A DNA stretch of 64,000 nucleotides, taken from a virus. This document shows, piece by piece, positions 24,910-44,406 of this stretch. The stretch covers positions 2,909 through 66,908 of IMG/VR virus record IMGVR_UViG_3300027963_000071, one strand, 5' to 3'. Under the pieces are notes generated by a model. The model had not been told where the DNA came from. It made no database searches and was given only the letters and a program-made list of their open reading frames with translations. Within the stretch, counting starts at the first letter, position 1, and each line of letters starts with the position of its first letter. A program made the translations under genes and the position numbers.

Positions 24910-24963
24910 CGGGCAGCGTAATTTTGAGCGCGAAGCGTAAAACGTTTTTTTTACACGAAGTGT
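24910..24963 (+). repeat. Left arm of long-range inverted element, with GAA-loop hairpins
   Basis: CGGGCAGC-N10-GCGCGAAGCG-TAAAA, then ACAC-GAA-GTGT. Confidence 0.7.
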
Positions 24964-24977
24964 TAGCGCAGATTTTT

Positions 24978-25202
24978 TTAGTCGAATAAAGTGCGCACTA
25001 TTCTCGACTGTTCAGGATACTTGATCAACCATATGTCAGCGTAGAGACTGTTGTTAAACAGCAACCACCAGTCTGTAGGCACTGCCGCATTATACAGTTC
25101 AGTGTGTGCATAGCTACGAGGCCAATAACTGACCGCACGATTCCACCCTTGTAGTAAAGCGATCTGCGGTCGTTGAAACTGTTCTAGATACACTATAAGC
25201 AT
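24978..25202 (-). CDS. Hypothetical protein
   Basis: 74 aa; TAAATA upstream. Confidence 0.5.
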   Translation of the reverse strand: MLIVYLEQFQRPQIALLQGWNRAVSYWPRSYAHTELYNAAVPTDWWLLFNNSLYADIWLIKYPEQSRIVRTLFD

Positions 25203-25216
25203 ATCTAGTATTTAAG

Positions 25217-25801
25217 TTATTCGGGTAAGATACTGTAGTTAAAGGTCAATACATAGCGTTCTTCATGCTGTGTAGGACTTGTGCTAGAATGAAAGTGTGC
25301 GCCGTCAAAATCAGCCCAAAGATTAGCTTCGGGTGTGACACGCTCTGCTTCTGTATAAGTCTTAGGAACAGGATCGGGACGTGCATAGTCAGTGCGTTCA
25401 TTATAAACTATAGTATCACCGTCTGTAGGCATAACATAGTAAAGACCTGTACGATGTACAACACCTTGATCCACATGCGGGCTGTGTACCACTGGATAGG
25501 GTGTACGAGTGCAAAAACCGTAGCGTACACGATATACAGTATCCAGCTTCTGCCCCTGAGCATCTAATGCTGCCATTAATATATGAAAAGCGTTTTCCCA
25601 TAATGGACTTATAGGACCTACATCTGGCCCGTATATGGTATGACTGAACGATCCACGGTATTCTGCAATGTTGTCAAGATCCATATCACCCGCTGTAATG
25701 GGCATATAGAACCAATGGACGCCTAGATCAGCAAAACGTTGTACAACATAGCTTTGATGTGTATGTTTGAGTAAATTGGGTATTCGAGTGACTATAGACA
25801 T
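25217..25801 (-). CDS. 2OG-Fe(II) oxygenase-like protein
   Basis: PHVD, DGDT, FHSSTSP, RYVLTFN. Confidence 0.7.
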   Translation of the reverse strand: MSIVTRIPNLLKHTHQSYVVQRFADLGVHWFYMPITAGDMDLDNIAEYRGSFSHTIYGPDVGPISPLWENAFHILMAALDAQGQKLDTVYRVRYGFCTRTPYPVVHSPHVDQGVVHRTGLYYVMPTDGDTIVYNERTDYARPDPVPKTYTEAERVTPEANLWADFDGAHFHSSTSPTQHEERYVLTFNYSILPE

Positions 25802-25872
25802 AAGTGTATGATAAAGAATCCTATTAATAATATAACGACTACAATATAAGCTGGTCTCATACAGTAATTATG

Positions 25873-26103
25873 TTAGCAGTCAGCATCACCTATCGGTTCT
25901 GGATCTTGAACAGGATGACAGTGTTCAGCCCAGCGTAGAGCAAAGTCTGTGTAGAGTGGTGCGCCTAATGGGACCCAAAAGCGTGTGCGATTGAGATGTA
26001 TTTCATACAGTATGTTATGGTGTTGTATCCACTCAAGTACACCTACTGCATGAGCAGATTGATTGAGCACTGCATATTGCGCATGATTGGCCGGGTGTGT
26101 CAT
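25873..26103 (-). CDS. Hypothetical protein
   Basis: ATGA-coupled to 26100..26288. Confidence 0.55.
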   Translation of the reverse strand: MTHPANHAQYAVLNQSAHAVGVLEWIQHHNILYEIHLNRTRFWVPLGAPLYTDFALRWAEHCHPVQDPEPIGDADC

Positions 26104-26288
26104 ACTATTCCGGGACGAAACTCAATACAGTAAGCGCATATGGCTAGTACAACACATAAGACAATCCAAGCCCATTTGCTGATTGGACCTTCTACATCCT
26201 GTACACGATAATAGGCATCAAAGTCCGGATCATAGCGATACTGTTTACCACGTATTACTTCAATTTGATTATATTGATCATTGTTCAT
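26100..26288 (-). CDS. Small membrane protein
   Basis: C-terminal hydrophobic helix WAWIVLCVVLAICAY. Confidence 0.55.
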   Translation of the reverse strand: MNNDQYNQIEVIRGKQYRYDPDFDAYYRVQDVEGPISKWAWIVLCVVLAICAYCIEFRPGIV

Positions 26289-26653
26289 AGTAGTCTATCC
26301 GTTATACCAGTAATTAGTGGATCTTTCGATCCGTTTGCATTGATCCTGGCAATGTCTGATATGGCTGTTTCCAGTAGTTCTAATCGTTGTTGCTGTGTGT
26401 AGAATCGTTCTCGTAGAGAAGTTGCTTGTAATAAGCTGAGGATTTTACTGAGAATAATGGGGATCCAAGTGTGTGTCATACTTGTATATATAGCGACCAA
26501 ATGGGTCCTGCAGGTTAAAAAATCTGCTGCGTAAAAAATTTGGGTGGAGTACTTACAGATTCTGGGTGGTGAATTTAGACCACTAGCCGCTAAAATAGCT
26601 AGTACACACTAACATACACTATACCGGTCGGCCCCATACCGACCACCACCACC

Positions 26654-26878
26654 TCACCTCAGATGGTTGGTCCATGACCAGTACCGGAGATTCTCTGGGC
26701 TCATTCCCATCAACACACCTTCGTAGGCTGCGTAGGATATAGCCTTGAACTCACCGGCTTCCCACTTTGATCTAAAGGGATCTTTATTCAAGCGTCCAGC
26801 CTGCTGTTTAGCCGTGCGCTCTAGTTTATAGTAACGCTCTGCACGTCCGCTTGCTGTGTTGTATACGATGTATCCCAT
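26654..26878 (-). CDS. Hypothetical early protein
   Basis: AAAGGT RBS; YIVYNT..G...RYYK resembles 43631..43894. Confidence 0.55.
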   Translation of the reverse strand: MGYIVYNTASGRAERYYKLERTAKQQAGRLNKDPFRSKWEAGEFKAISYAAYEGVLMGMSPENLRYWSWTNHLR

Positions 26879-27061
26879 GCTACCTTTACTGCTGTGTTAC
26901 TCTAGTTACATCTAGGACTCTGATGTGGCTTACACTCTCTGCTCATACCACAGCACACATCATGGCTGCTGTTGTTGGGGATCTGATCCATGCCAATGCC
27001 CACACCGCCCTTGGGGTCCCAGGGTGCATCACGGCGATCCCCTAGTAGGCTACACGCTGCG

Positions 27062-27488: not shown

Positions 27489-27545
27489 TTGCTTTCCTTT
27501 GTGTGTTTGTGTATGTGTTAATTATACTACCGTTTAGCCCGAATG

Positions 27546-27722
27546 TCAAGCAGTTTCTCGCTGTGCTTGCTTGACCAATTCGTGTGCCAAGTTCAGTGCC
27601 ATCATAGCTGCGACCATAGCGATCATGCGTTCCTGTCCCGAGAACTTCATGATCTGATCTTCCAGGGCCTGCATGGATTCTGGTGTGGCAAAGAAGTTGT
27701 TCTTTTGGATTGGGTTCTTCAT
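27546..27722 (-). CDS. 58-aa hypothetical protein (MKNPIQKNNFF...), not in the ORF track
   Basis: Own promoter and AGGA RBS; its TGA lies within the next TTGACA. Confidence 0.6.
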   Translation of the reverse strand: MKNPIQKNNFFATPESMQALEDQIMKFSGQERMIAMVAAMMALNLAHELVKQAQRETA

Positions 27723-27761
27723 GTGGGTTCCTGTTTGTTTGTGTATGTGTGTATTATATGC

Positions 27762-28055
27762 TCAAACGCCCAAACTGTCAACCAATAACCCTGCACTGTC
27801 TAGGTACTTTAGCTGTGTGTCTGCGGGCTGTTGCCAGAAGCGATCACCCTGCTTGACGGCCTCTATGACCCGAACGTGAATCTCGGGATAGGCCGCTACG
27901 ATTCTGCTGAATCGATTGTAGATCTCTTGCTGTTGCTCTTGGGTCAAACCATACTCGCTGCGTGTGCTGCGTACCTGGAAGGCCAATTGGTTGATCAAGT
28001 GATCGAGATCCTGGGTGGGCTGAGTCGTGCCCGATTTCAGTGTGTCAAAGGTCAT
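27762..28055 (-). CDS. Hypothetical early protein
   Basis: AGGAGCGA RBS. Confidence 0.6.
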   Translation of the reverse strand: MTFDTLKSGTTQPTQDLDHLINQLAFQVRSTRSEYGLTQEQQQEIYNRFSRIVAAYPEIHVRVIEAVKQGDRFWQQPADTQLKYLDSAGLLVDSLGV

Positions 28056-28074
28056 GTTCGCTCCTTGTTGCTGT

Positions 28075-28390
28075 TAGGCGGGGATGTTTGATAGAAATAA
28101 CAGTTTTGAACCTGCCCTACCGTGCCGTCCACGGACTTGTCTATCAACCACATTACACTCCAACTTGATCCGGCGTGCCTCGCCCTTTCGGGTCTGCTTT
28201 CGTGTTGCCTAGCAGTGCCAGTCCGTCAACTGGGAATCCACTAACTAGACAACCTACCGGAGTTGGTAACCCCTTATCTCATTACGCTTAGGCCGGGTCT
28301 CCAAACCCGCTTCGTATCCCTTGGCTACAACCCTTTTTGCATCACTGCGTGGGTTCTTGCATTTGAGGATCACCTTGCTTTCTAACTTGT
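28075..28390 (-). ncRNA. Candidate structured ncRNA or long leader (~310 nt)
   Basis: TTGACA-17-TACAAT promoter at 28395-28423, no ORF of 60 aa or more, several complementary helices. Confidence 0.55.
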
Positions 28391-28419
28391 CTCTATTGTA
28401 ACACCATTCGTCCAAACTG

Positions 28420-28650
28420 TCAACCTAGTGCTTTCAATAACCCTACAACACACAGGACTATTGCCACTCCATTTATAATCATCTGCGGCTTGTTCACCAC
28501 GCGATAACTCCAAGTAAAGAAGCACAGGGCACCTACCAAAGCCACTGCATTACGCAGGTTGTCATAGCCTGGAAAGAAGTTGCTTACGACATACATCGCT
28601 AGGATGAATGCTGTTCCTGTCCACTGTATTGCGTCATTTGTTTTGTTCAT
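28420..28650 (-). CDS. Small three-TM membrane protein (leaderless)
   Basis: MNKTNDAIQWTG start 6 nt after the -10 box; hydrophobic helices. Confidence 0.6.
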   Translation of the reverse strand: MNKTNDAIQWTGTAFILAMYVVSNFFPGYDNLRNAVALVGALCFFTWSYRVVNKPQMIINGVAIVLCVVGLLKALG

Positions 28651-28681
28651 GTGTGTATTATAACGCACTCTGTCCAAAATG

Positions 28682-28927
28682 TCAACCAATTTCCTGTTGT
28701 ATTTTAGCCACACCGTGTGCGAACTCATGTTGTGCCAAACGGTTGTGTCCCTGGATGGCTCGTTCCCGGGTAGGATACCGAGCAACCACGTTGCTTCTAC
28801 CGTTGCTGTAGAACAAGCAGGTTTCATACTGGTCCCCAGCAACAGCAGCCGAGTTCAACTTGACGGTTGATATCTCTACATCGCCAATGACGTTCAAGCT
28901 GATCTGTTTGGGCATAACGAAGTTCAT
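28682..28927 (-). CDS. Hypothetical early protein
   Basis: ISTV...YETCLF...RY. Confidence 0.55.
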   Translation of the reverse strand: MNFVMPKQISLNVIGDVEISTVKLNSAAVAGDQYETCLFYSNGRSNVVARYPTRERAIQGHNRLAQHEFAHGVAKIQQEIG

Positions 28928-29238
28928 GCTAGTTCTCCTAGTTCGATTGTGGGTTCTGGATAGCGGATCTCTCCGTCGTATTCCAGCTGGCTGCGTTCAA
29001 ACCAGCTGAGGTAATCGTCTGCTTCCACGTGGAAACCGATGATGGCAGTTGTGAAGTATTCATCATCGCGTTCGATCTGGCTGCGTACCATGTCTACGAT
29101 CTCTGAGGCATCTGCCCCGGCAGGAACATTTGTGATTTTATACGAGGATCCACCTTTGGCCTTCCAACGATAGGTACCGTCGAAACCTGTGTGGGCCGCG
29201 TAGTTCTCGTGATCCTGTGTGTCGATTACTATGATCAT
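28924..29238 (-). CDS. Hypothetical early protein
   Basis: TQDHENYAAH...WKAKGGS; GGAGCGA RBS. Confidence 0.65.
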   Translation of the reverse strand: MIIVIDTQDHENYAAHTGFDGTYRWKAKGGSSYKITNVPAGADASEIVDMVRSQIERDDEYFTTAIIGFHVEADDYLSWFERSQLEYDGEIRYPEPTIELGELA

Positions 29239-29301
29239 TGTCGCTCCTGTTATCTAACTATGTGCATAGTATAACAGGCATTAGCCAATTTGTCAACCAA
29301 T

Positions 29302-29691
29302 TTATGCGTTGTTTTTCTGCAACAGTTCAGCACCGTTGTTCTCGGATATCACCAGGCGAACATCTCGCATTCTGCTGGCGATAGATTTGACTAGATCATC
29401 CTGGTTAGCACCTTGCCCTAGGAACTCTTCAGTGTCTGTGCGGTAGGCAAACAGAACTCCCTGATGGCGCTCAACACGGATCTCAAGCACTGCCTTGGGC
29501 GGCTCTGCAGTGATGTCTGCGGGATTGATGCCATGGCGGATCATCACGTTCTTCAGTTGATCGGGCGTGATGTCCAATTCCTTCATCAGTTCGCTGAAGC
29601 TGATACGCATCCAGATGCTGACCAGCTTGCCTCCCACAAAGACTCCAAGGATGAAGATCAGGAGACCTTCTAAGAATGATTGTATGTCCAT
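29302..29691 (-). CDS. Membrane-anchored hypothetical protein
   Basis: N-terminal TM helix; TAAATA upstream. Confidence 0.6.
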   Translation of the reverse strand: MDIQSFLEGLLIFILGVFVGGKLVSIWMRISFSELMKELDITPDQLKNVMIRHGINPADITAEPPKAVLEIRVERHQGVLFAYRTDTEEFLGQGANQDDLVKSIASRMRDVRLVISENNGAELLQKNNA

Positions 29692-29710
29692 GTTGTTATT
29701 TAATTAATTC

Positions 29711-29968
29711 TTATTCGTATTCGTAAAATGTTACCGCTGGATCAAGTTGCTTCAACTCACGTGCGGCTGTGGTAAGTTGGCGATAGCGTTGCTTTACGGC
29801 ACTACGGCTCAGCTCACCATCACAGGTAAGGTTCTCTGGGCTTAGTTCGTTGTCGATCATCTCTGCGATACGCTGACGATCCTGTGCTGTGTCTAGGCTC
29901 ATTGCTGGGGAACCAAAGATGGCATTCCAGCGGTTCTTCTGATCTAGATAGGTGTTGAGGTTTTTCAT
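29711..29968 (-). CDS. Hypothetical early protein
   Basis: LSPENLTCDGE; promoter and GGAGCGA RBS. Confidence 0.65.
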   Translation of the reverse strand: MKNLNTYLDQKNRWNAIFGSPAMSLDTAQDRQRIAEMIDNELSPENLTCDGELSRSAVKQRYRQLTTAARELKQLDPAVTFYEYE

Positions 29969-30073
29969 TGTCGCTCCTAACTGTTAATATGTATATATTA
30001 TAGCATCTTTTGGCGAAGTTGTCAACCGCTGGACAGCGGGGCCAGTGTGGCATTTGCGCCACACCTTGTGCGT

Positions 30074-30451
30074 TTACAACTCCATGCTCGCCATGCCGTC
30101 CTCTTGCATGCCCTGCTCTGTAAACATAACCTCTGTACCTAACAGTGTGCTAATCGCATCTGCAAAGCCCGTGTCTGTATACAGTCTCCAGCTGTCCTCA
30201 TACTCTGTGTCGCCGTTAACATTGTAGCACACTGTAATGTGTATGCTACTGTCGCCGTCCAATTCGTCCCACCATTGCTCGTGTATGTGTATGCTTGTAA
30301 CTGTAACTGCCTCTAGCTCGCAGTCCCATATACTGTCACCTGCAAGTTGCACCTCTACGTTGCAGTCGTATGTTGTGCTAATGCTGTCTTCGCTAGTGTC
30401 TGTACCTGCTAGTGTCAGTTTGTCGCTAACATTAAATTGTGTTGCTTGCAT
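30074..30451 (-). CDS. Acidic proline-free early protein
   Basis: 125 aa, D/E-rich, GGAGAG RBS. Confidence 0.65.
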   Translation of the reverse strand: MQATQFNVSDKLTLAGTDTSEDSISTTYDCNVEVQLAGDSIWDCELEAVTVTSIHIHEQWWDELDGDSSIHITVCYNVNGDTEYEDSWRLYTDTGFADAISTLLGTEVMFTEQGMQEDGMASMEL

Positions 30452-30608
30452 ATTGCTCTCCTACTAATTCCCAACCGTTTAACTCCGTAGCACACACGTC
30501 GTCTGCGTTAACTTCTATCTCGTCCGCCGCAACGTCTGCCGCCTCTTGTGTATCTGCATCTACGTGCAAATAAAATGTTTGTGTTTGCTTGTATACAAAT
30601 GTTGCCAT
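30432..30608 (-). CDS. 58-aa acidic protein (MATFVYKQTQTF...), not in the ORF track
   Basis: TAGGAG RBS; no Pro. Confidence 0.6.
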   Translation of the reverse strand: MATFVYKQTQTFYLHVDADTQEAADVAADEIEVNADDVCATELNGWELVGEQYASNTI

Positions 30609-30617
30609 GTTGTGCTC

Positions 30618-30773
30618 CTAATCTACGTAATATTCTACAGTTTGTGTTAGTGTGCTAAGTGCACCTTCTACTTCCGCAAAACAACTTAGCTGTGCAAGTT
30701 GCTCGCCGTCTAGTGTTGCCTCTAACAGCATTTCCTCTACTTCCGCTAGCTTTGCAAGTATTGCGTCTCTCAT
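30618..30773 (-). CDS. 51-aa acidic helical protein (MRDAILAKLAEVEEM...), not in the ORF track
   Basis: AAGGGA RBS; no Pro. Confidence 0.6.
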   Translation of the reverse strand: MRDAILAKLAEVEEMLLEATLDGEQLAQLSCFAEVEGALSTLTQTVEYYVD

Positions 30774-30783
30774 TGTGTGTCCC

Positions 30784-30945
30784 TTATGCTACTGCTTTGT
30801 AAACTGTTACTGTAGTGTCTGCAAAATCTGCATGTGCATTGTAAAACGCTTGTGCTCGTGCAATAGCGTCTTCTGCGCTAGTTGCTTTTACTACGCACAA
30901 ATCTTCTATGTTGTCGTAGCGCAAATAAACTGTGTATTTCTGCAT
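30784..30945 (-). CDS. 53-aa protein (MQKYTVYLRYDN...)
   Basis: AAAGGA RBS, own promoter; no Pro. Confidence 0.6.
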   Translation of the reverse strand: MQKYTVYLRYDNIEDLCVVKATSAEDAIARAQAFYNAHADFADTTVTVYKAVA

Positions 30946-31019
30946 TGTGTTTCCTTTACTGCTTAAAAACGTATTATAGCACACTTGCATCCAAAATGCA
31001 AGTGTTGTGCTAATAACCC

Positions 31020-31286
31020 TTACGCTAAGTCTGCTTTTACACGTACATACTGTCCGCCAAATGTGTATGTTGCAAAGTTGCTTGCAACACCTGTGCGTGT
31101 TACTTCGTTTGCACAAGTAGCACGTAAGTAGTTTGCTAACGTGTCCGCCGCCTGTGCATCTCTAAAACAAAATACTACTGTACGTCTTTTGCTTGCTTTG
31201 TTTTTAGTTGTCCTGTCCGTATAACTTGCGCTTACGCTAGTTACGTTACGTGCTAATGCACGTATTTGCTTTGTGTTAAACAACAT
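31020..31286 (-). CDS. 88-aa basic protein (MLFNTKQIRA...)
   Basis: AAGGAG RBS, own promoter; no Pro. Confidence 0.6.
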   Translation of the reverse strand: MLFNTKQIRALARNVTSVSASYTDRTTKNKASKRRTVVFCFRDAQAADTLANYLRATCANEVTRTGVASNFATYTFGGQYVRVKADLA

Positions 31287-31366
31287 ACTGCTCCTTTTAC
31301 TGCTTAAAAAACAATTATAGCACACAATTGCATTTTGGGCAAATTATGTGCTAATACTGTACTAAA

Positions 31367-31618
31367 TTACTCTACTATTACAATGTTGTTTGTGCGCAAC
31401 ATCTTTTGTGCTGTTATAATTGTGCGTTGCACCTCTGCATCTATGTTATCTGCAAGCAAATCTCCGCTTACATAGTTACATTGCTTTTGTACAGGAAAAC
31501 GCATTTTATAGTTAGTACCTACTAACTCTTTGTGTACGTTAAATGCAATTTGCATTTTGTAGGAATTAAGTTTTTTATTGTAAACTAGTTTTGCGTATGC
31601 TATGCACTGTGTTAACAT
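31367..31618 (-). CDS. Hypothetical early protein
   Basis: AAAGGA RBS; promoter at 31648-31676. Confidence 0.6.
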   Translation of the reverse strand: MLTQCIAYAKLVYNKKLNSYKMQIAFNVHKELVGTNYKMRFPVQKQCNYVSGDLLADNIDAEVQRTIITAQKMLRTNNIVIVE

Positions 31619-31678
31619 TGTGTGTCCTTTTGTGTGTGTAAGCATGTATTATAACGCACTTTGTCCAAAATGTCAACC

Positions 31679-31708
31679 AAAAAAAAAGACCCTACGTAAT
31701 GTAGGGCC
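31679..31708 (-). terminator. Intrinsic terminator, overlapping an ACCC-N11-GGG operator-like site
   Basis: GGCCCTAC-ATTAC-GTAGGGTC followed by a T run. Confidence 0.65.
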
Positions 31709-31738
31709 TTTCAAAGCCTAGATTCGGGAGCGAACCGT

Positions 31739-32044: not shown

Positions 32045-32132
32045 TTGTGTTACCTCTTTCTGTGTGTGTTTAAGTTAGCTGCACTAGCAGCATGTTATTA
32101 TTGTAGCATCAAACTACCAAATCGTCAACCAT

Positions 32133-33251: not shown

Positions 33252-33306
33252 AGTTCGCTCCTATGTGTTGTTAATATGTTTATTATACAGTCATTTGGAC
33301 AAAAAG

Positions 33307-36454: not shown

Positions 36455-36567
36455 TGTTCGCTCTCCTTAGTATGTGTATATTATAGCATCGTTCTACACA
36501 TCTGTCAACCAAAAAAGGTGGACGGGCAAGCCCTGAGAAGCCCCCCGCCCGTGCTATGTTAGAGGTC

Positions 36568-37653: not shown

Positions 37654-37730
37654 TTTAAGACCTCTTTAAGTTTACGGGTTAAACAATTACTTTCTCAGTA
37701 TCATAAGTATAACACCAAATTGCTTTGCTG

Positions 37731-38360
37731 TCAACCGGTAGTTTTCACAAAGTTTAATTGTGTTGTATTATTGCCACGCTGGGCTTTTACTTTGCCCTTG
37801 ATTCCCACACGGCCCTCTAACGCTGTTCCGAACCAGAAGTCCACGAACGAATCCCCTAGCTTGGCAGTGATACGGAACTTGTTGTAGTCCTTACTGTAGA
37901 AGCTCTTGATCACTTCGATCTCTCCCTGGACGCGATCTCCTACAGCAGCACTCAGTTGGGTGGAGCTACGGATCTCGCTGTCTAGCTCCTTACGGCTTTC
38001 TTCTCGCAGCATAGCAGCTGGCAAGCAGCTGATGATGGCAAAGTCCAGCATGTCGCGCCCTGTGAACTCGTCCTTTTGGGCGATACGCAGTGCCTGACGC
38101 TCGAAGTCGTTGATCTTCCCGGACAGTTCCTTCAGCAGCAGGCCGTTGAAGTAATGACGGATCTCTTGTCCCTGGGTGATGTCTGCTGCTGTTGCAGCTG
38201 AGAAGTTGCCCTCGCGTAGCCAACCTTTGACTAGGGTCTTGTTGGCTGTTCGCAGGACTGTTACCATATCTTCTGCGAACTGAGCGTCTTTGAAGTAGCC
38301 ACCGTTGATACGATCTGCGGCTACGGCTAAACCCCATACCTGTTCTGCTGTGAATTGCAT
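37731..38360 (-). CDS. Hypothetical protein with possible C-terminal OB fold
   Basis: VGDRV...IKGKVK...TQLNFVK. Confidence 0.55.
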   Translation of the reverse strand: MQFTAEQVWGLAVAADRINGGYFKDAQFAEDMVTVLRTANKTLVKGWLREGNFSAATAADITQGQEIRHYFNGLLLKELSGKINDFERQALRIAQKDEFTGRDMLDFAIISCLPAAMLREESRKELDSEIRSSTQLSAAVGDRVQGEIEVIKSFYSKDYNKFRITAKLGDSFVDFWFGTALEGRVGIKGKVKAQRGNNTTQLNFVKTTG

Positions 38361-38438
38361 TCTCGCTCCTAATCTCTTAGTATGTGTCTATTATAACACT
38401 ATGTATCCAATTTGTCAACCAGGGAGTGCCGGCCAAGA

Positions 38439-38466
38439 AAAAAGGTGTTGTATTTCTACAACACCC
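38439..38466 (-). terminator. Intrinsic terminator, also a class A operator palindrome
   Basis: GGTGTTGT-AGAAAT-ACAACACC followed by a T run. Confidence 0.65.
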
Positions 38467-38516
38467 TCAAAAGACTCCCCGGGAGCGAATCGGCTTGTCT
38501 GTTTGAAACGGTTACT

Positions 38517-38798
38517 TTAGATTGTTTCTAAAGTGAAACCAGCTGCCTTAGCCTTGTAACCAAGTGCAACGATTTCGCGTGATGGCTTGCCCATTACGTA
38601 TTCGGTAACAGTCACACCATTGCCAGCCTTGCGGTTGTTGGCATAAACAGCGTAACCATGTTGACGGATACGTGAAGCTTCAGCGGCCAAGTTACCTACG
38701 CCGAATTGCTTAGTGGCTTGGCTCTGTGTTAGAGAAGCGCCATTGTAAAGTGCATTAAACACTTTGAAAGTTTTTGTATTTTTAGAAATACGTTTCAT
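38517..38798 (-). CDS. Winged-helix DNA-binding protein
   Basis: GASLTQSQATKQFGVGNLAAEASRIRQHGY. Confidence 0.6.
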   Translation of the reverse strand: MKRISKNTKTFKVFNALYNGASLTQSQATKQFGVGNLAAEASRIRQHGYAVYANNRKAGNGVTVTEYVMGKPSREIVALGYKAKAAGFTLETI

Positions 38799-38892
38799 TT
38801 GCCTTTTTCCTTTATTGTTATAGCTGAAGTTCATCAGCATTTTATTAGTATAAAGCCTTACCATTACCCTTGTCAAATCGCATATTACCGAT

Positions 38893-39093
38893 TTAACTCT
38901 TTTTGGAAATCTTAACCGGGCTACGAATAAACGTGCCCAAGATCAAGGTTGCCGCCCATGTCCAGAAGGTGTAGTCGATTGCGCACACCGATCCAAACAG
39001 AGTATTCCAGGCCCAAATTACAAAGAACGGTCCCGCAATTACTAAAATCAATACCAACACTGCCGCTATCGCGACACCCAAAGTCTTAAACAT
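38893..39093 (-). CDS. Small membrane protein
   Basis: Two hydrophobic helices. Confidence 0.6.
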   Translation of the reverse strand: MFKTLGVAIAAVLVLILVIAGPFFVIWAWNTLFGSVCAIDYTFWTWAATLILGTFIRSPVKISKKS

Positions 39094-39340
39094 TTACGTC
39101 CTCCACGTCCGCCTCTTGTTCGGCGATTAGTTTGTGCAGTTCGAGTTCTGCCAACTCTTTCTCTATCAGCTTCTCCATACGCTTGGCACCCGTGTTGCTG
39201 GATCCCTTACGATACATCTGATGATAGTGTTCAGCACAGTAGCTCTTGCCCTCTATGCTCTTTTGGCCGCAGAATGTATACGGCCACTCCTTCTGTTCAG
39301 CACCAATGTATTGGCACTCCTTGATTGGACCGTCGTACAT
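39086..39340 (-). CDS. GcrA C-terminal-like protein
   Basis: CQYIG...FCG...GKSYCAEH...MY matches the GcrA Cys/His pattern; TAATG coupling. Confidence 0.6.
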   Translation of the reverse strand: MYDGPIKECQYIGAEQKEWPYTFCGQKSIEGKSYCAEHYHQMYRKGSSNTGAKRMEKLIEKELAELELHKLIAEQEADVEDVNV

Positions 39341-40413
39341 TACACACCTCTCTTCATAACAGTTACTTCTGCCATAGATTTCCAATTAGCACTGAAGCTC
39401 TTACGCAAGTCTGCTACCTTCAGTACCGTACGCAAGCTGAGCTCACGCATCTTAGCACGATTCTCTACAATGTAGTCTACAACTTCATCGCGCTGTACAT
39501 CCTCAAGCTCGTATGAGTCCAACATGCCGTCTTCAACGATCTGCTTGATACGGAGCACCTTCTCACGATCTGTGTCCATTTGCAAGTCGATATAGTGACA
39601 GCGTGACTCTAGTGCCGCCAAGTGATCCTGCAGTTTCTTACTACGCACATTCTCAAACTTGATGTTGGTGATAAAGATAGCACCTGCTTTGAATTCGAAG
39701 CGATCTGGCACTCCTTCGCTTCGCAGTACACGACTGTCCGTGTTCCACGAAATGGTACGCTTCTTGCTACTGTCCAAAGCCGCTTTAAGAATGTTCAGCG
39801 ACAAGTCATCTAACAGCACTGAGTCACAGTCATCGAACACGATAACATTGCCCTTCTCGCTGTATTGATAGAGCTTGCTGTACAAGCCAATCGCGGACAT
39901 TGCGCCCTTGACAACTTCATACTTGGGTTTACGCTGACCCATTACGTCAAACAGATCGTCTTTGCTTAGTACTTCTTCAACACCAAAGCTCTTGCCCACG
40001 CCTGGGGGCCCTGTGACAATCATAGCACGAACAGTACCAGCTTTCACAGCCTTAGTCATCTCTGTTAACACGGCAAAACGGTTGCGAGTACGCTCGATGA
40101 TCTCTTCATCCGTTTCGTGCGCTACAACAGCGTCTGACACTTTGATCTGTTCCAAACTCTTTTCTCCTACGGGTGAGGCACTGACGTCCCCTGCCACGAC
40201 CACGTAGCTCTGTGCGCTAATGCATTTGATACGGATCTTGCGATCAGGGATACCTGAGCTACTAGGGTTAGCAGTTGAGCCGTCAACAGTAACATAGCCA
40301 CCGTTAACACCCTCTTTGAAACCTTCTACTAGTTCAAAACGGATACCGCTCATAGACACGTCTTGTCCGCGAACTTTGTAAGTACCCTCTGCTATTTCGA
40401 TAATTGCTGGCAT
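39340..40413 (-). CDS. P-loop AAA-type ATPase
   Basis: GPPGVGKS, VFDDCD, FITN, ESRC; start MPAIIE after GGAGCGA. Confidence 0.8.
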   Translation of the reverse strand: MPAIIEIAEGTYKVRGQDVSMSGIRFELVEGFKEGVNGGYVTVDGSTANPSSSGIPDRKIRIKCISAQSYVVVAGDVSASPVGEKSLEQIKVSDAVVAHETDEEIIERTRNRFAVLTEMTKAVKAGTVRAMIVTGPPGVGKSFGVEEVLSKDDLFDVMGQRKPKYEVVKGAMSAIGLYSKLYQYSEKGNVIVFDDCDSVLLDDLSLNILKAALDSSKKRTISWNTDSRVLRSEGVPDRFEFKAGAIFITNIKFENVRSKKLQDHLAALESRCHYIDLQMDTDREKVLRIKQIVEDGMLDSYELEDVQRDEVVDYIVENRAKMRELSLRTVLKVADLRKSFSANWKSMAEVTVMKRGV

Positions 40414-40499
40414 TGTTTTCGCTCCAATGTTTGTTAGTAAGTCTCTATTATGCACTCAAACAAGGGCTTTGTCAACCCCTGTTTTGGCCCTGTTGTTAT

Positions 40500-40970
40500 T
40501 CAGCCACGGCCAACAGCTTGGCCTTCTGTAAGATCAACTTCAAACTGTTCCTTCTCAGGGTTGCAGTAGTCCAGGAACTCGATCACGTTACCGTCGAACA
40601 GAGTCTCGTTGGTGTCATCCATCGTAAGCCCAAACATGTTGAAGCCGCGATTGGTAACACGTACACGGAGCTCATTCTCACGTTCGTAGACGTGATACTC
40701 GTAGTCCTGCCCGCACTCAGTGTCTGTTACAGGGTGGATGTAGAACCCGCCGGGGGTCTGTTTGAAGTTAGCGATCATCTGTGCTGCCAAGCAGCCCATG
40801 CCGTTGAATACTGTTTCGTTCTTGCCACTCAAACCGTTTACCAGCTTGCCCTGTGTAAGGAACTCCGCTAGCTCTTGTCCGTGTCCGCTGGGGTAGCCGT
40901 CGTATTGACGGTACATGTTGATGATGGGCGTTTCGCCATCGTATACAAAAGTAAGTGCTCTGGTACCCAT
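40500..40970 (-). CDS. Conserved-looking hypothetical early protein
   Basis: MGTRALT...YRQYDGYP. Confidence 0.65.
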   Translation of the reverse strand: MGTRALTFVYDGETPIINMYRQYDGYPSGHGQELAEFLTQGKLVNGLSGKNETVFNGMGCLAAQMIANFKQTPGGFYIHPVTDTECGQDYEYHVYERENELRVRVTNRGFNMFGLTMDDTNETLFDGNVIEFLDYCNPEKEQFEVDLTEGQAVGRG

Positions 40971-41041
40971 AGTCGTCGCTCCTATTAAGTGTGTGTAAGC
41001 CTAGATTATAACACGGGCCGGAGCCCGTGTCAACCTCTTTT

Positions 41042-41395
41042 TTAAATACCCTGGAAAGCAGTAAGGGCTTGTTGTGCATCTGCATCCAACATAGCAGAGT
41101 CCTCAGCTCGTTGGCGCTCTTGTGCTACTGTAGTCTTGTAAGCCTCTAGCTCTGCAGACTTTGCTTCCATAGCAGGCCACTCAACGTCTGTAGGGTTAAG
41201 GTAAGGACCAGTGTAGTCCCGCTTTTCCTCTTTAAGGGTGATCTCTCCGGACGCAATGCCTTCAAACACCATGCCCCATGTAGGCTGTTGCGGACGGCCA
41301 GTAGGACCAAATAGTGCTACAGCCTTGGCCTCAACCTTGGCCTGTGCAATTTCGTTAAGACGACGTACAAAATACTCTCTCTGTGCTTGTTCCAT
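41042..41395 (-). CDS. Hypothetical early protein
   Basis: GGAGCGA RBS before MEQAQRE. Confidence 0.6.
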   Translation of the reverse strand: MEQAQREYFVRRLNEIAQAKVEAKAVALFGPTGRPQQPTWGMVFEGIASGEITLKEEKRDYTGPYLNPTDVEWPAMEAKSAELEAYKTTVAQERQRAEDSAMLDADAQQALTAFQGI

Positions 41396-41434
41396 GCTTC
41401 GCTCCATGTTGTTAAGTAAGTGTATATTATATGC

Positions 41435-41824
41435 TCAAACTGTCACGTTGTCAACCGGTATTTTAGATAACCCTTCAAGTATCTGGGTTACTCGCTTTTT
41501 GGCGTCCTCGATGGTCTCACTGATCATGTCCTCAGCGACTCCATCCCGCAAGACTTCTGCAGCATCCTCGTAGACAAAGCCCCCTACATAGTTAACAGCC
41601 AGTTCCACGTCCTCGTACATGGCGCGGACCCTGAGCATGAAGTAGTCCAGCTTGCCCGAGTCAATGTCACGTGCCATCTGCTGAACATCGTAGTAGGGCA
41701 GGCCCGTGTCTGGGTCTAGGCCGGTGTCGAACAGGTCCTCTAGGGGCAAGTCTTCCCAGGTCTTGTCTACGATGATGTCAAAGCCTGCTCGCGTGTATTC
41801 TGCCAGTGTGTCATAATAGCGCAT
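41435..41824 (-). CDS. Acidic hypothetical early protein
   Basis: GAGGAG RBS. Confidence 0.6.
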   Translation of the reverse strand: MRYYDTLAEYTRAGFDIIVDKTWEDLPLEDLFDTGLDPDTGLPYYDVQQMARDIDSGKLDYFMLRVRAMYEDVELAVNYVGGFVYEDAAEVLRDGVAEDMISETIEDAKKRVTQILEGLSKIPVDNVTV

Positions 41825-41825
41825 G

Positions 41826-42149
41826 TCAATCTCCTCGTGTGTCAGTGTTAAGTGCGGGTTTGAACTGTCTGCGCAGTTCTACTTCTCGGCGATGTGCTGC
41901 CGCTTTACCACGTACCATTTCTACGGCACGTATGTCTATGGCCAGCTTGTCGTCCAGTGTACGCAGGTATTGGCACAACAGCCAATCTTTGGCTTCTGTT
42001 TTGGCACGATAGAAGTGCTTGGCAGCACGGCTACGCAGGCTCTTTAGTACTGTTGATTCGGTTTTGGCAGTAACGCCGATGTAGGACCCTTGGGGTGTGA
42101 CGATCTCATATATGATATGATTACGATCTACTCTGGGTTTACGTGACAT
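41826..42149 (-). CDS. GIY-YIG-like small protein
   Basis: IIYEI...SYIGVT, R..H, E...R...P.LN. Confidence 0.55.
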   Translation of the reverse strand: MSRKPRVDRNHIIYEIVTPQGSYIGVTAKTESTVLKSLRSRAAKHFYRAKTEAKDWLLCQYLRTLDDKLAIDIRAVEMVRGKAAAHRREVELRRQFKPALNTDTRGD

Positions 42150-42315
42150 TGTTCGCTCCAATCTCTTACTATGCATATAGTATAACACCGATTGGGCCCG
42201 ATGTCAACCGTTATTTTGGTGCAAAAAAGCCACAGTTTGGCGATCCGCTGCGGCACTCTCCTTCCTGGATCGACCCTACTGCGGCTAGGGTTGTTCGCTG
42301 TTCACGAACGTGTTG

Positions 42316-42393
42316 TGGTGGGCCCTCCCAGAGTCGAACTGGGCACCAATGGATTATGAGTCCACTGCTCTAACCAACATGAGCTAAGGGCCC
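42316..42393 (-). tRNA. tRNA with CAU anticodon, most likely tRNA-Ile2 (lysidine type)
   Basis: GGGCCCTTAGCTCA...GGTTAGAGCA-GTGGA-CTCATAA-TCCAT...GTTCGA...GGGCCCACCA; cloverleaf with encoded CCA, resembles bacterial ileX. Confidence 0.9.
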
Positions 42394-42405
42394 GTATCGA
42401 TGCTG

Positions 42406-42699
42406 CTAGGCCAGCCCCGTGCCCTTGAGTGGATGCCCCTTGTCCTGTGCTGCTGCGCTGTTGTTCTGATCACGTGTCCATGTGCTGCTGAACTGATCGG
42501 GGTCTATAGCTGTGTCAGCAGCTGATTCCAATGCTGCAAAGAACCGTTCCATCTCCTCTGGTCCAATCTGATCCGCATCTGGACGAAACCCTGATTGATC
42601 CTCGGGTATACGTACGATCTCTTCAGCTGAGAAATCCCACTCCCACCCACGTGGCGGTGCATAAGCTGCTGCACGACTTTTAAAGTTTGTAATCTTCAT
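42406..42699 (-). CDS. Hypothetical protein
   Basis: 97 aa, coupled. Confidence 0.5.
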   Translation of the reverse strand: MKITNFKSRAAAYAPPRGWEWDFSAEEIVRIPEDQSGFRPDADQIGPEEMERFFAALESAADTAIDPDQFSSTWTRDQNNSAAAQDKGHPLKGTGLA

Positions 42700-42949
42700 C
42701 TACTTGATCCTCTAGGCTCTTCTGTAATACCATCTTGTACAAGGGTTCCATCCGCTTCTGGAACACATGCTGCGCACCACTTTCGCTGGCACGATCCAAA
42801 TCATAATCAGAAGGAAAGTGTCGCAGCAGACTTAATGCTCGCTGCCGGATCTCCCGAGGTACACGTGGAGTAGCTGCTGCACTGCAGAGATCCTGTAAGA
42901 ACTGCTGTGTTTGTACAACAGCACGATAGCGTTCATCTGGTAATGTCAT
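42680..42949 (-). CDS. Hypothetical protein (MTLPDERYRAV)
   Basis: GAGGA RBS; TPRVP..IR..A..LLRHFP. Confidence 0.6.
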   Translation of the reverse strand: MTLPDERYRAVVQTQQFLQDLCSAAATPRVPREIRQRALSLLRHFPSDYDLDRASESGAQHVFQKRMEPLYKMVLQKSLEDQVDEDYKL

Positions 42950-43026
42950 AGGGTCCTCTCTTGACTGTGATAATCTTCGCTTCTTAAGCATGTAGTTATT
43001 ATACAGTCAAACTTTGATAATGTCAA

Positions 43027-43645
43027 GCAGCGGGGCCTATGTTAGTCGTGATAAATTTTGGATGATTTAGAATGGGATCTAAAGTAAACTCAGTATCTTG
43101 TACACTGTATAAGGGATCACTCTTATACTGTACTACTGTATAGTAACCCGCGGGTGTATACTGTCGAGTACATAGTACAGTGTATAAGACTCTTGTGGCT
43201 TCATCAACGGAGATCATGTATATATTTACGCAGCGGGGCCACCGTTTGATCACCGTATACGCACTGGTATATGGTTGATCACGGTACTTTTATTGTAGAT
43301 CATTGTGGAAGAAACCCTGAATCCGAACCGTTTGAGCAGAGTAGAGATAGATTTGATATAATAAAAAATTATTAAGAACGGTGGAATGACTGGCTATGCT
43401 CAAATGGTCACACAATTCTACACAATTCCACACTTTATTGCACTTTCTACTACTGTGTCGCGTACCAATACCACAGCAGCGGGGCCTATACGCAGGGTGC
43501 ATACTCTATCACTGACAGTAAATCACACTTTACCACGCAAAACCACACTTACTGAGCCTGTTCTCTACAGAAAATCCAGCGTAATCCTACAGTAAATCAC
43601 ACTATGCACATCATATACGTATGCGCACAATCACGCAGCGGGGCC
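43027..43645. repeat. Cluster of GCAGCGGGGCC and other short direct repeats
   Basis: GCAGCGGGGCC at 43027, 43230, 43476, 43635; ACAGTAAATCACACT at 43515 and 43589. Confidence 0.8.
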
Positions 43646-43894
43646 TATAGTTAAGTCCATTTGTTCTACTGTATCTTCTACTATGCAGTATGTTCCCGTC
43701 ACCACTGTGCCGTCCGGCAGAAGATACTGTTCTACTTCACAGTTGTCGTATAGCTCTACTCGTTCTATTCTGTTATCAAAGCCCAAATGCGAGTTACGAG
43801 CATGTTGGGCGATTCGTGCGCCAGCACGAGTCTTATAGTAGCGCAGTCTTTCACCTGTATCTTTGTGTACTATGTAGTATACTGTCAGTAGCAT
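43631..43894 (-). CDS. Hypothetical protein
   Basis: GAGGA RBS; YYIVHKDTGERLRYYKT. Confidence 0.55.
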   Translation of the reverse strand: MLLTVYYIVHKDTGERLRYYKTRAGARIAQHARNSHLGFDNRIERVELYDNCEVEQYLLPDGTVVTGTYCIVEDTVEQMDLTIGPAA

Positions 43895-44119
43895 ATATAA
43901 TCCTCTAGGGCTCGCGCAGCGTTCTTAGTCATATCAACTCGCTATATAGTATACCAGCGATCATACCCAATCCAAAGCACAGGGCACACATCACTAACAG
44001 TAGCACACAGTAATAGAGTTCATCCATTACAATGATTTCTACTATGCGTTTTGTGTCTTTGTCCATATCGATATTTACACGCTTTTGAATACATACTAGT
44101 ATAAGACTCCGGGGGCGCC

Positions 44120-44338
44120 ATGTTAGAATCTTACATAACACTATACTGTATTACCTACGATCCATATCGCTGTAGAGTTGATCCAGAACGAGTTTGGACA
44201 CTGGTACAGAGCGCAGGAGGATCATGTCATGCAGGTGCCGCTGGCCATTTGGACTTTTATGTACCTGAGGCCGTTGCCAGCCTAGTCATGTTAATGGATT
44301 CGGGACTACGCATAGCGCACAAGAAGAGCTACATATAA
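44120..44338 (+). CDS. Hypothetical protein
   Basis: 72-aa ORF. Confidence 0.45.
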   Translation: MLESYITLYCITYDPYRCRVDPERVWTLVQSAGGSCHAGAAGHLDFYVPEAVASLVMLMDSGLRIAHKKSYI

Positions 44339-44373
44339 TATACGCAGATAATTATTGGAATTTGCTTGAAAAT

Positions 44374-44406
44374 TTTTGCGCTTCGCGCAGCTCTTCGAGC
44401 TGCCCG
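44374..44406 (-). repeat. Right arm of long-range inverted element, with GAA-loop hairpins
   Basis: Minus strand CGGGCAGC-N10-GCGCGAAGCG-CAAAA; hairpins GCAGCTC-GAA-GAGCTGC and GCGC-GAA-GCGC. Confidence 0.7.

Follow-up and report, generated by a model that had tools for sequence, protein, structure and literature searches.

Cis-acting sites that depend on orientation and lie as inverted pairs around a domain, or repeat- and palindrome-rich non-coding DNA placed beside the first-expressed region, are represented by the Ter/Tus fork traps, the nutL and nutR sites of lambda and the injection stop signal of T5. In T4-like phages the promoter-early stem-loops (PeSL), as presented in the available part of the report on them, are cassettes of a stem-loop plus a promoter located in hyperplastic regions (PMC4122927). 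The motifs are described there as conserved while the surrounding genes turn over, and are proposed as joints for modular shuffling (PMC4122927); PeSL motifs of T4-like phages also appear in the available text of Arbiol et al. 2010 (PMC2839356). Another related class is that of the mini-hairpin DNAs GCGNAGC/GCGNNAGC, with sites given, in the accessible portion of the source, in the complementary-strand origins of G4, St-1 and alpha3, in ssiA of RSF1010 and in the N4 virion RNA polymerase promoters (PMC13037366).

Here we describe two inverted arrays of small hairpins in a stretch of 64,000 nucleotides (the window) that is part of the genome of an uncultured freshwater jumbo phage (record length 66.9 kb). 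Between the two arrays lies a minus-strand block rich in near-consensus sigma-70 promoters, which sit in repeated cassettes of families D1-D4, and this early block is the hyperplastic gene region of the jumbo-phage clade (Table 1).

Organization of the two arrays

A single conserved, strand-polar cis-element of one to three units is present as two copies, one at each edge of the early block and each pointing into it. In each unit a short hairpin, rich in GC and with three mostly purine bases in its loop (usually GAA), is followed by AGCGC(A)-type boxes and then, usually, by an A-run/T-run. The inverted blocks that an earlier note on this DNA had reported are exactly as it described them, the + strand from 24910 reading CGGGCAGC-GTAATTTTGA-GCGCGAAGCG-TAAAA and the - strand from 44406 reading CGGGCAGC-TCGAAGAGCT-GCGCGAAGCG-CAAAA. 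All four C-GAA-G hairpins, two per end, were located where it had placed them, together with an outward TAAATA motif outside each array, 5-6 nt ahead of an ATG. Motif-to-ATG spacings of 4-6 nt are strongly over-represented in a 353-kb relative. A GAATWATC-like box, as read directly from the sequences, is also found outward of the left arrays in relatives.

Table 1. Features of the two arrays, their flanks and the early block (window coordinates)
Feature	Position	Strand	Details
Sigma-70-type promoter	24197..24225	+	perfect 12/12, TTGACA-17-TATAAT; TATAAATA within spacer; drives + gene towards left array
Conserved 145-aa gene, acetyltransferase-like	24248..24685	+	Pfam MCD C-terminal domain, PF05292, E 3.7e-8
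Gene B, 72 aa, outward	24679..24897	-	start 5 nt past outward TAAATA motif
Outward late-type promoter motif ATAAATA	24903..24909	-	then ACTGT, then ATG
Left array, three units	24910..24979	+	forward strand is +; aligned with 17 relatives
Left array, unit 1	24910-24927	+	decayed; holds CGGGCAGC word
Left array, unit 2, hairpin CGC-GAA-GCG	24929-24937	+	then TAAAACG, then T8 (24945-24952)
Left array, unit 3, hairpin ACAC-GAA-GTGT	24953-24963	+	box AGCGCAGA (24965-24972), T7 (24973-24979)
Gene A, 74 aa, last gene of early block	24978..25202	-	stop codon overlaps the array's last T-run
Early block core	27521..43026	-	20 promoters TTGACA-16/18-TATAAT, at least 11/12 positions matched, all on - strand
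72-aa gene, real	44120..44338	+	between first - gene of block and right array; amino acid-level conservation in L011
Right array	44369..44406	-	forward strand is -; CGG, two hairpins, then A-run/T-run
Right array hairpin GCAGCTC-GAA-GAGCTGC	44387-44403	-	read after CGG
Right array hairpin (T)GCGC-GAA-GCGC(A)	44377-44389	-	second hairpin
Right array A-run/T-run AAAAATTTT	44369-44377	-	3' of both hairpins
GAATTATC box	44408..44415	+	outward side of right array; read from sequence
Outward late-type promoter TATAAATA	44435..44442	+	then CACTAT, then ATG (44449)
Outward 243-aa gene past right array	44449..45180	+	unrelated gene in its place in G001

Neither the window nor the 66.9-kb record has CGGGCAGC or GCGCGAAGCG anywhere but at the two arrays. 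Single blocks are within chance (at least two matches in 18/100 and 26/100 shuffles), the inverted match of 23/33 is ordinary in a window that holds 280 inverted pairs, and the left element has no folding advantage over its shuffles (z about 0 to +1), so that the pair is not proven from the window alone; the right element folds modestly better than shuffles (z -1.8 to -2.9). The pair is real because both elements are kept in relatives, with the same positions and orientations.

Conservation in relatives

The search with the conserved gene gave 590 related stretches in viral contigs, of which 80 loci were kept. A forward array is present downstream of the acetyltransferase-like gene in 50 of these 80 loci and a reversed one in none. 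Matches to a box-plus-T-run regular expression number 98 on the strand of the conserved gene versus 7 on the other, and the C-GAA-G hairpins, found in 16 of the 80 loci, always carry GAA on that gene's strand. At the far edge of the block, each of the nine genomes that carry it has a reversed array just past the block promoter that lies furthest upstream. Arrays occur at these two places only in the 353-kb relative (98% complete), and the window's own record likewise contains only two. The elements bracket the early domain, as the earlier note had claimed, with related inverted copies at both edges of the sigma-70-rich block, rather than being scattered over the genome or private to one phage.

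The arrays are islands of similarity amid otherwise non-homologous flanks. The gene downstream of the right array varies among lineages, and in G001 array and promoter are kept although that gene has been swapped. A variable number of opposite-strand genes, and from 27 to about 2900 nt, separates the conserved gene from the left array; in three distant lineages the array stands 27-72 nt past the stop codon of the conserved gene. The 3' end of gene A (AGTCGAATAAAG...) is kept beside the array in several relatives. Most arrays have a late-type promoter (TAAATA-N5-ATG) directly beside them, firing outward; in G001 the right array sits between divergent late promoters, and in G006 a minus-strand gene directly precedes it. 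The right arrays of G002 and G006 contain no T-run.

The family-wide shared unit is the set of GNA-loop mini-hairpins, AGCGC(A) boxes and A/T-runs and not CGGGCAGC-N10-GCGCGAAGCG. The CGGGCAGC word is not common to the relatives, its right-hand counterparts being CAGTGCAT in L011 and CATGGCAGC in G001, and at the left array it aligns with the decayed first repeat unit. The loops of the hairpins, read on one strand, obey a purine-N-A rule (GAA, GCA, GGA, GTA, AGA, AAA). Each array has two to five direct AGCGC(A) repeats plus one A4-6/T4-9 tract, the boxes being near-invariant in sequence rather than in structure, and only on the forward strand do T-runs follow the hairpins. Many stems are just 2-4 bp and most units fall within 2-5 bp, one hairpin of the right array reaching 7 bp.

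The stems covary. Two compensatory pair changes distinguish GCAGCTC/GAGCTGC in the window from GCATGTC/GACATGC in L011, and all 10 distinct variants of the inter-box segment fold as a hairpin. Over 18 aligned arrays 88% of the cells are paired and six of eight pairs have changed on both sides, with a covariation score of 0.309 versus 0.132 in shuffles (0/500 reach 0.309) and at most 0.09 for slid partners. This pattern of substitutions indicates that the hairpin structure is under selection. The wobble pairs (two independent G-T cases versus one A-C) do not tell the folding strand apart.

Possible functions of the arrays

Units driven by sigma-70 promoters point at the block from both flanks, namely the acetyltransferase-like gene on the left and a ligase-containing minus-strand unit on the right. 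Inward-facing minus-strand promoters are located beyond the right array at 50602, 53801 and 53883, and comparable ones are also found beyond the right array in G001-G008. Since these inward units abut opposite late genes at convergent junctions without room for a terminator (24679/24685, overlapping; 49220/49224, separated by 3 nt), their read-through would run antisense across late genes. We tentatively favour, at something short of an even chance, the reading that transcription running into the block meets a polar stop at the arrays, which pair with the outward late promoter. They would act as terminator or insulator arrays against RNA polymerase arriving from outside, the read-through meeting them in the orientation in which the U-runs come after the hairpins; array and outward late promoter would together form a terminator-promoter punctuation cassette, which may double as a fixed joint for gene exchange. 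The polarity of the T-runs fits termination of inward transcription, and in some lineages (the three distant ones at the left array, and G006 at the right) the arrays occupy classical terminator positions. On the other side, 17 arrays contain 22 forward T-runs, of which 11 are without a closed RNA structure ending within 3 nt and only two have one abutting, and many stems, at just 2-4 bp, would be weak as RNA. Ordinary terminators occur elsewhere in the clade, with 6-9 bp stems and, in the clearest intergenic cases, tetraloops and an abutting T-run, so a special kind at two places only is hard to explain. The logic is weak at the right-hand edge, where inward read-through would be co-directional with the early genes, so that what would be gained by stopping it is hard to see, and some right arrays (G001) have nothing close by to terminate.

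A possible but doubtful alternative is that the replication machinery reads the arrays as single-strand DNA signals, whether for priming, as parts of an origin or as polar signals to the fork. Very stable GCGNAGC-type mini-hairpins on the forward strand would then stand beside an easily melted A/T-run, the paired inward layout would be a replication feature of the early region, and the AGCGC repeats could serve a sequence-specific protein much as iterons serve an initiator. The exact DNA mini-hairpin motif is present and would count for little if folded as RNA. Precedents for mini-hairpins are described at the G4 complementary-strand origin and in RSF1010 ssiA (PMC13037366). The purine-N-A rule holds on one strand, the forward strand would be the lagging-strand template for forks from either side, and two loci per 353-kb genome is what is expected of origins and not of terminators. 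The AGCGC(A) repeats plus A/T tract are origin-like, and replication genes lie nearby: on the left, at 5-15 kb, are those for a primase and two helicases, and on the right, at 5 kb, that for a ligase (PHROGs scan, 105 window ORFs of at least 60 aa retained by ORF selection). GC skew, a check that the earlier note had suggested, tracks gene direction, however, and shows no switch at the arrays; elsewhere GCGNAGC is at background (44 forward and 22 reverse in G001, where the reversed-pattern control gives 18 and 19), an unwinding element would be expected to have a longer A/T tract, facing sites 13-23 kb apart match no known origin design, and the wobble pairs do not single out the strand that folds.

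Near-invariance as sequence would rather suit the AGCGC(A) boxes to double-strand binding by a phage or host protein that delimits the early domain, such as one that times the neighbouring late promoters or forms a topological barrier, with the hairpins incidental or binding aids. The GAATWATC-like box outward of both arrays in several lineages, the outward TAAATA promoter adjoining most of them and array positions kept while neighbour genes turn over agree with it. Such binding is nonetheless unlikely, as stem covariation is unexpected for a plain duplex site, three distant lineages have an array without outward late promoter, and no candidate binding protein was found. A role mainly as recombination linkers, punctuation through which related phages could exchange whole early blocks, or the cassettes beside them, by homologous recombination in the manner suggested for PeSL motifs, is compatible with the other readings and would account for the similarity islands between non-homologous flanks, the array-plus-promoter module joined to different downstream genes by lineage and the variable gene content between conserved gene and left array. 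Inside the block, eight of the 12 contig joints listed (of 23) have an end within a repeated promoter cassette. None of the contig joints listed, the lesser part of the total, is at the arrays themselves; this role leaves strand polarity, hairpin covariation and the loop rule unexplained, and is rather improbable. The inversion sites envisaged by the earlier note would make the arrays terminal inverted repeats of an invertible or transposable 19.5-kb segment, for which the geometry of inward-reading inverted repeats is appropriate. That idea is largely refuted and highly improbable: orientation of the block relative to the flanking conserved gene is the same in 9 of 9 genomes, the short arms match at 23/33 only with an outer 8-mer that is not conserved, the 105 retained window ORFs of at least 60 aa yielded neither a recombinase nor a transposase in the PHROGs scan, and the ends show no target-site duplication.

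Comparison with known systems

The arrays bear no sequence likeness to Ter/Tus, nutL/nutR or the T5 stop signal, and the early block, unlike the divergent lambda operons, is transcribed one way only. With mini-hairpin DNA they share the heptamer GCGAAGC and its variants, three-base GNA loops and GC stems of 2-5 bp (up to 7 bp) on one strand, and GCTGC-GGA-GCAGC and GCAGCTC-GAA-GAGCTGC, with a stem of 5-7 bp and a 3-nt loop, have the geometry of the N4 promoters. In contrast to those sites, they belong to a double-stranded jumbo phage with host-type early promoters and also carry boxes and A/T-runs. A role as N4-type hairpin promoters, which the earlier note had mentioned as a known use of such hairpins, is not supported: the early genes have host-type sigma-70 promoters, and the 10 ORFs scanned of the 23 of at least 600 aa in the relative (longest 4575 aa) yielded no virion or T7-like RNA polymerase; a Pfam RNA_pol search gave no match either, but it gave none in any control genome.

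Likeness to intrinsic (Rho-independent) terminators, including tandem ones, lies in the GC-rich hairpins, the T-runs 3' on one strand, the intergenic location and the placement after a strongly promoted gene that reads the same way. In most cases, however, the T-run is missing or stands 4-10 nt off the stem, most stems have 2-5 bp, and the architecture differs from that of the clade's ordinary terminators. Unlike PeSL, the boundary arrays occur only twice per genome, inverted, and combine AGCGC boxes with several hairpins that keep to a fixed loop rule; the adjacent promoter is late-type and fires away from the array, instead of being an early promoter downstream of the stem-loop. It is the block's 20 repeated sigma-70 cassettes, short composite units of stem-loop plus promoter, that resemble the PeSL motifs as the available part of their description gives them (PMC4122927), and families D1-D4 look like true PeSL analogues.

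The inverted pair in the window

The + strand at 24910 reads CGGGCAGC-N10-GCGCGAAGCG-TAAAA and the - strand from 44406 reads CGGGCAGC-N10-GCGCGAAGCG-CAAAA. The paired words are thus equally spaced and inverted, as the earlier note had claimed, and neither CGGGCAGC nor GCGCGAAGCG has another copy in the window or in the 66.9-kb record. The four C-GAA-G hairpins which that note ascribed to the two ends are all present, and so is the outward TAAATA (late-type promoter motif) just outside each element, 5-6 nt upstream of an ATG. Taken alone, the pair is weak evidence, since each word taken singly is within chance, the inverted match (23/33) is ordinary among the 280 inverted pairs of the window, and folding is close to that of shuffled sequence: no better for the left element and modestly better for the right one (nearest-neighbour DNA folding z of ~0 and ~-1.8, with parameters that may lack the mini-hairpin bonus).

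Neither element matched an Rfam family at E up to 1, and GC skew tracks gene direction only, both for the window and for G001 (a related genome of 353 kb, 98% complete). With a small RNA in mind, forward-strand sigma-70 promoters were sought before the arrays by eye and by scan and none was found, the forward strand being that which carries the GAA-type loops and points into the block. No match came from megablast of the two ends in the phage collection, from tblastn with the 243-aa protein or from a search of viral contigs with three flanking proteins. The exact 18-base pattern had eight matches in viral contigs, all of them chance occurrences in GC-rich unrelated sequence. The four sequencing runs compared with the window consist of assembled contigs with thin cover at both ends, and in them the 15 joints listed are skips, with no strand switch at 24.9 or 44.4 kb; the RNA contigs stop short of the arrays, and one X2 contig is collinear with the window across 43345-44600.

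Genome context

The viral contig record has a completeness rating of 16% and was found again in freshwater metagenomes from several studies. Its DnaB-like helicase shares ~50% identity with the helicases of Pseudomonas phage PA5oct and Agrobacterium phage Atu_ph07, which makes the record a jumbo-phage fragment. The genes between the elements are small and lie on the minus strand. This early block contains 20 promoters of the form TTGACA-16/18-TATAAT, matching at no fewer than 11 of 12 positions; every one of them is on the minus strand, the plus strand having none, and they are placed in repeated cassettes. Its G+C is 0.47-0.50 versus 0.35-0.41 in the left flank and the neighbouring replication and modification genes (window 24001-48000 against flanks), and the excess is also seen in G001 at 305-335 kb. 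Primase, helicases and a polymerase fragment are found to the left of the block, and a ligase to the right.

The 145-aa gene upstream of the left array has a perfect sigma-70 promoter, with a late motif, TATAAATA, within its 17-nt spacer (24197-24247); the overlap suggests, from sequence, both early and late expression. At the other edge, alignment with relatives of the right element confirms the + ORF at 44120-44338 as a genuine gene. One CATG (44118-44122) provides the start both of this 72-aa + gene and of the first minus-strand block gene in its longest form; the minus-strand gene may alternatively start at an internal ATG near 44103, and its counterpart in the related locus L011 has its own TAAATA-ACTGT-ATG start. 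Elsewhere the window carries repeated genes (Table) and many 2OG-Fe(II) oxygenase, methyltransferase, glycosyltransferase, carbamoyltransferase and sugar-epimerase genes, a set which suggests hypermodification of DNA or virion. The largest ORF of G001 (180246-193976, -) encodes a virion structural protein of 4575 aa (phrog_10938), one segment of which is baseplate-wedge-like.

Late-type TAAATA motifs 4-6 nt upstream of an ATG occur in the window and genome-wide in G001. There, 46 of 229 TAAATA sites lie at these distances from an ATG (18, 20 and 8 at 4, 5 and 6 nt), and four control hexamers occurring 293-480 times gave 2-18 per distance. Of seven structural genes checked, three have the motif upstream: the tail sheath, a tail fibre and a baseplate gene. 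The spacing of T4-like late promoters was taken as a guide to the transcript start; with it, transcripts would begin at or beside the AUG, giving leaderless late mRNAs without a Shine-Dalgarno sequence.

Positions of the arrays and of neighbouring features (window coordinates unless G001 is named)
Feature	Position	Strand	Remark
Left array	24910-24979	+	
Right array	44369-44406	-	
Heptamer GCGAAGC	24930	+	
Heptamer GCGAAGC	44386	-	
Late-type TAAATA	24903-24897	-	
Late-type TAAATA	34559	-	
Late-type TAAATA	44435-44451	+	
Late-type TAAATA	60707	+	
DnaG-like primase gene	15524-16531		
145-aa gene	24248-24685	+	Pfam MCD acetyltransferase-like domain match; points at left element
Three tandem paralogous genes	21541-24157	-	Repeat period ~863-887 nt; families D9, D12
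Cluster of small repeated genes	61100-63900		Near right end; families D5-D8 and D11
Modification-type genes	1331-7281, 16577-18217, 20963-21544, 46324-47489, 50606-51505, 58636-59502		
Forward array, G001	308.71-308.75 kb		
Reversed array, G001	329.55-329.57 kb		GCAGCTC-TTC-GAGCTGC (identical) and GCTGC-TCC-GCAGC (GGA on other strand)
Third element, G001	308963-308983		In many loci 220-700 nt beyond left array

Conservation of the arrays in related genomes

The family was opened by a fourth flanking protein: the 145-aa gene, used as query against viral contigs, gave 590 related stretches, of which 80 were kept. An array lies downstream of this gene at 27 to ~2900 nt, always on the gene's strand (six of the 80 loci have less than 1 kb downstream, and the view was limited to arrays within 3 kb). 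Its grammar comprises a GC-rich mini-hairpin, AGCGC(A) boxes and an A-run/T-run; the loop is GAA, less often AAA, AGA, GCA, GGA or GTA, and the unit is repeated one to three times, more in a few lineages. Strand polarity is strict. A rule of three features finds a forward array in 50 of the 80 loci and a reversed one in none, C-GAA-G hairpins carry GAA on the gene's strand in 16 loci and the reverse in 0/80, and matches to a box plus T-run expression number 98 on the gene's strand versus 7 on the other. In the window, CGGGCAGCGTAATTTTGA aligns with a decayed first unit (compare CCGGGCGCAGAAATTTTGA in the related locus L063). Among named phages the sole relative of the 145-aa gene is a distant one, in Pelagibacter phage Mosig (33% identity), and no cultured model was found. 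Further downstream of the left array, where the next minus-strand gene ends, there is a recurrent third element of simpler build, (A-run)-N-GCGCAG-TTTTTT, which in three loci matches on both strands and has an A-run and a T-run on its flanks.

Two metagenome contigs in which the gene at 44449 has a counterpart of 78% identity keep the right element. Here the hairpin GCGC-TTC-GCGC is unchanged, the second hairpin passes from GCAGCTC/GAGCTGC to GCATGTC/GACATGC by two compensatory pair changes, and both the GAATTATC box and TATAAATA-N6-ATG persist; CGGGCAGC does not.

G001 is syntenic with the window and carries both arrays, with 26 minus-strand consensus promoters between them. A relaxed motif scan covering the whole of G001 and the window's record gave clusters of four features or more at the two array sites only, in each; taken as a generic motif, the box pattern has other matches in G001, which are inside genes and without hairpins. 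In 8 of 12 genomes (the window, G001-G007) the promoter-dense block has a forward array ahead of its 3' end, and in all nine block-bearing genomes (the window, G001-G008) a reversed element with a GC-rich C-TTC-G hairpin is found just past the most upstream block promoter. The three more distant genomes, scanned for forward arrays, have neither these nor a dense block. Hence the idea that the elements bracket the early region held in relatives, where the inverted pair is kept at the block edges. The stems vary by lineage with complementarity maintained (GCGC, GCCGC/GCGGC, GCTGC/GCAGC, GCAGCTC/GAGCTGC, GCATGTC/GACATGC), and the genes around the arrays change while the arrays persist. Across many uncultured freshwater relatives, both block edges are marked by this small cis-element, whose strand rule is strict.

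Selection on the hairpins

When the flanking boxes alone are used as anchors, the segment between them folds into a hairpin in each of the 10 distinct variants, and one of these has only the two G-C pairs of GCGAAGC. Across 18 aligned arrays, 88% of the cells pair and six of eight pairs vary at both positions. Covariation scores 0.309, versus 0.132 in shuffles (0/500 reach 0.309), and slid partners give at most 0.09; the aligned arrays are related, so that the shuffle count is not a probability, and the slid controls, which retain that relatedness, stay low. Judged from these alignments, the hairpin structure of the arrays is under selection. The arrays are made of the exact mini-hairpin DNA motif, GCGNAGC/GCGNNAGC, with GCGAAGC, GCGCAGC and GCGGTAGC present in relatives. 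Natural sites of this motif named in PMC13037366 are the G4 complementary-strand origin, RSF1010 ssiA and the N4 promoters.

Possible functions of the arrays

The facts to be accounted for are the strict strand polarity, the covarying hairpins with their purine-N-A loop rule, the invariant AGCGC boxes, the presence of only two copies per genome, their inverted placement at the block edges and the outward late promoter beside most of them. An intrinsic terminator, with an RNA stem-loop 0-2 nt before a U-tract, shares with the arrays a position downstream of, and co-oriented with, a transcription unit (50/80 loci at left), and in three distant lineages the array is 27-72 nt past the conserved gene's stop codon; the right array directly follows a minus-strand gene in G006 only. 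The T-runs do not fit: of the 22 forward T-runs, 11 lack a closed RNA structure within 3 nt and just two are abutted by one (0 nt), and the right arrays of G002 and G006 are without a T-run. The clade's ordinary intergenic terminators have stems of 6-9 bp, the clearest ones with a tetraloop and an abutting T-run. By this comparison of sequences the arrays are not ordinary terminators, and the PA5oct terminators in two rows of supplementary table S4 are ordinary and unlike them. Inversion sites, another suggestion of the earlier note, are rejected on the same orientation in 9/9 genomes, the unconserved outer word and the failure to find a recombinase in a PHROGs scan of 105 window ORFs of at least 60 aa; an invertible segment or a transposon with terminal inverted repeats was likewise rejected, as that scan found no recombinase or transposase gene and no target duplication is visible at the ends. 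Promoters of the N4 type, also mentioned there, have a stem of 5-7 bp and a 3-nt purine-centred loop, as do GCAGCTC-GAA-GAGCTGC and, in G001, GCTGC-GGA-GCAGC; many other array units have shorter stems. The early genes have sigma-70 consensus promoters and no RNA polymerase was found in G001, which speaks against this reading. PF00940 (RNA polymerase) was not detected in G001, a weak negative since control genomes were equally silent, and 10 of its 23 ORFs of at least 600 aa, when scanned, gave seven tail, baseplate or virion structural families and no RNA polymerase. The related phage PA5oct relies on host RNA polymerase, according to PMC7318152.

The explanation that we favour, tentatively and with less than even confidence, is that the arrays form a polar stop to transcription arriving from outside. 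Only for polymerases that head into the block do T-runs come after hairpins. Such polymerases could issue from the inward-pointing sigma-70 units on both flanks (promoters at 24197 and at 50602, 53801 and 53883), which abut oppositely oriented late genes with no space for a terminator; a stop would also suit an array directly after a co-oriented gene, as in three distant lineages and G006. In T4, early read-through antisense over late genes produces anti-late RNA. The main rival, possible though doubtful, is that the forward strand acts as single-stranded DNA. It draws on the composition of the arrays, which consist of the exact GCGNAGC/GCGNNAGC motif, and on their copy number, iteron-like boxes, A/T tract and nearby replication genes, all of which would suit an origin-like or priming role; a forward-strand primer would moreover aim outwards at the adjoining late promoter. 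A specific form, which we consider rather unlikely, is that the arrays are strand-specific DNA mini-hairpin signals read by the phage replication machinery at both block edges. Negative supercoiling or unwinding from very heavy early transcription would then extrude GCGNAGC hairpins from the forward strand by the A/T-run, and the sites would serve as paired priming, clamp-loading or origin sites, coupling replication to the adjoining outward late promoters. T4 late promoters require a sliding clamp loaded at an interruption of the non-transcribed strand; the polarity of a forward-strand primer would be exactly that of this interruption. A boundary to which a protein binds as duplex is unlikely, and a recombination linker, which is compatible with the other readings, very improbable.

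Giant phages keep a fast-evolving early takeover block beside conserved replication and late genes, and the arrays are a possible handle on this organisation. If they are a polar stop, they would represent a compact, portable insulator of unusual design. Mini-hairpin signals are known from small single-stranded DNA phages, one plasmid and N4; a role of the forward strand as single-stranded DNA would extend them to jumbo-phage replication or late-gene activation, and signals read by the replication machinery would be the first single-stranded mini-hairpin signals to which a definite role is assigned in a large double-stranded phage. Under either reading, stop or single strand, the arrays could serve as a landmark for locating early regions in metagenomic jumbo-phage contigs.

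Comparison with known systems

In the literature on the mini-hairpin heptamer in phages and on intergenic hairpin motifs of jumbo phages, no such boundary arrays were found described. The closest described system, as set out in PMC4122927, is PeSL, a composite promoter-terminator motif of T4-like phages. PeSL joins a stem-loop to an early sigma-70 promoter and has many repeats in a hyperplastic region, and the boundary arrays were rejected as members, being two per genome and beside a late-type promoter that fires outwards. Throughout the early block (27494-42209) there are ~20 cassettes of GGTTGACA-N17-TATAAT with conserved flanks; the families D1-D4 of these internal cassettes, each a repeated unit with a sigma-70 promoter, have 13, 8, 7 and 6 copies. 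Among the joints listed in metagenome contigs of related phages, 8 of 12 have an end inside a cassette (for instance 27758, 28649, 31648, 33925/36490 and 38380), which fits PeSL-like modular shuffling in a jumbo phage. The internal cassettes resemble PeSL as repeated sigma-70 promoter units in a hyperplastic region, a likeness of the promoter part; the boundary arrays are set apart from it by their copy number, inverted arrangement, loop rule and boxes and by the type of promoter beside them.
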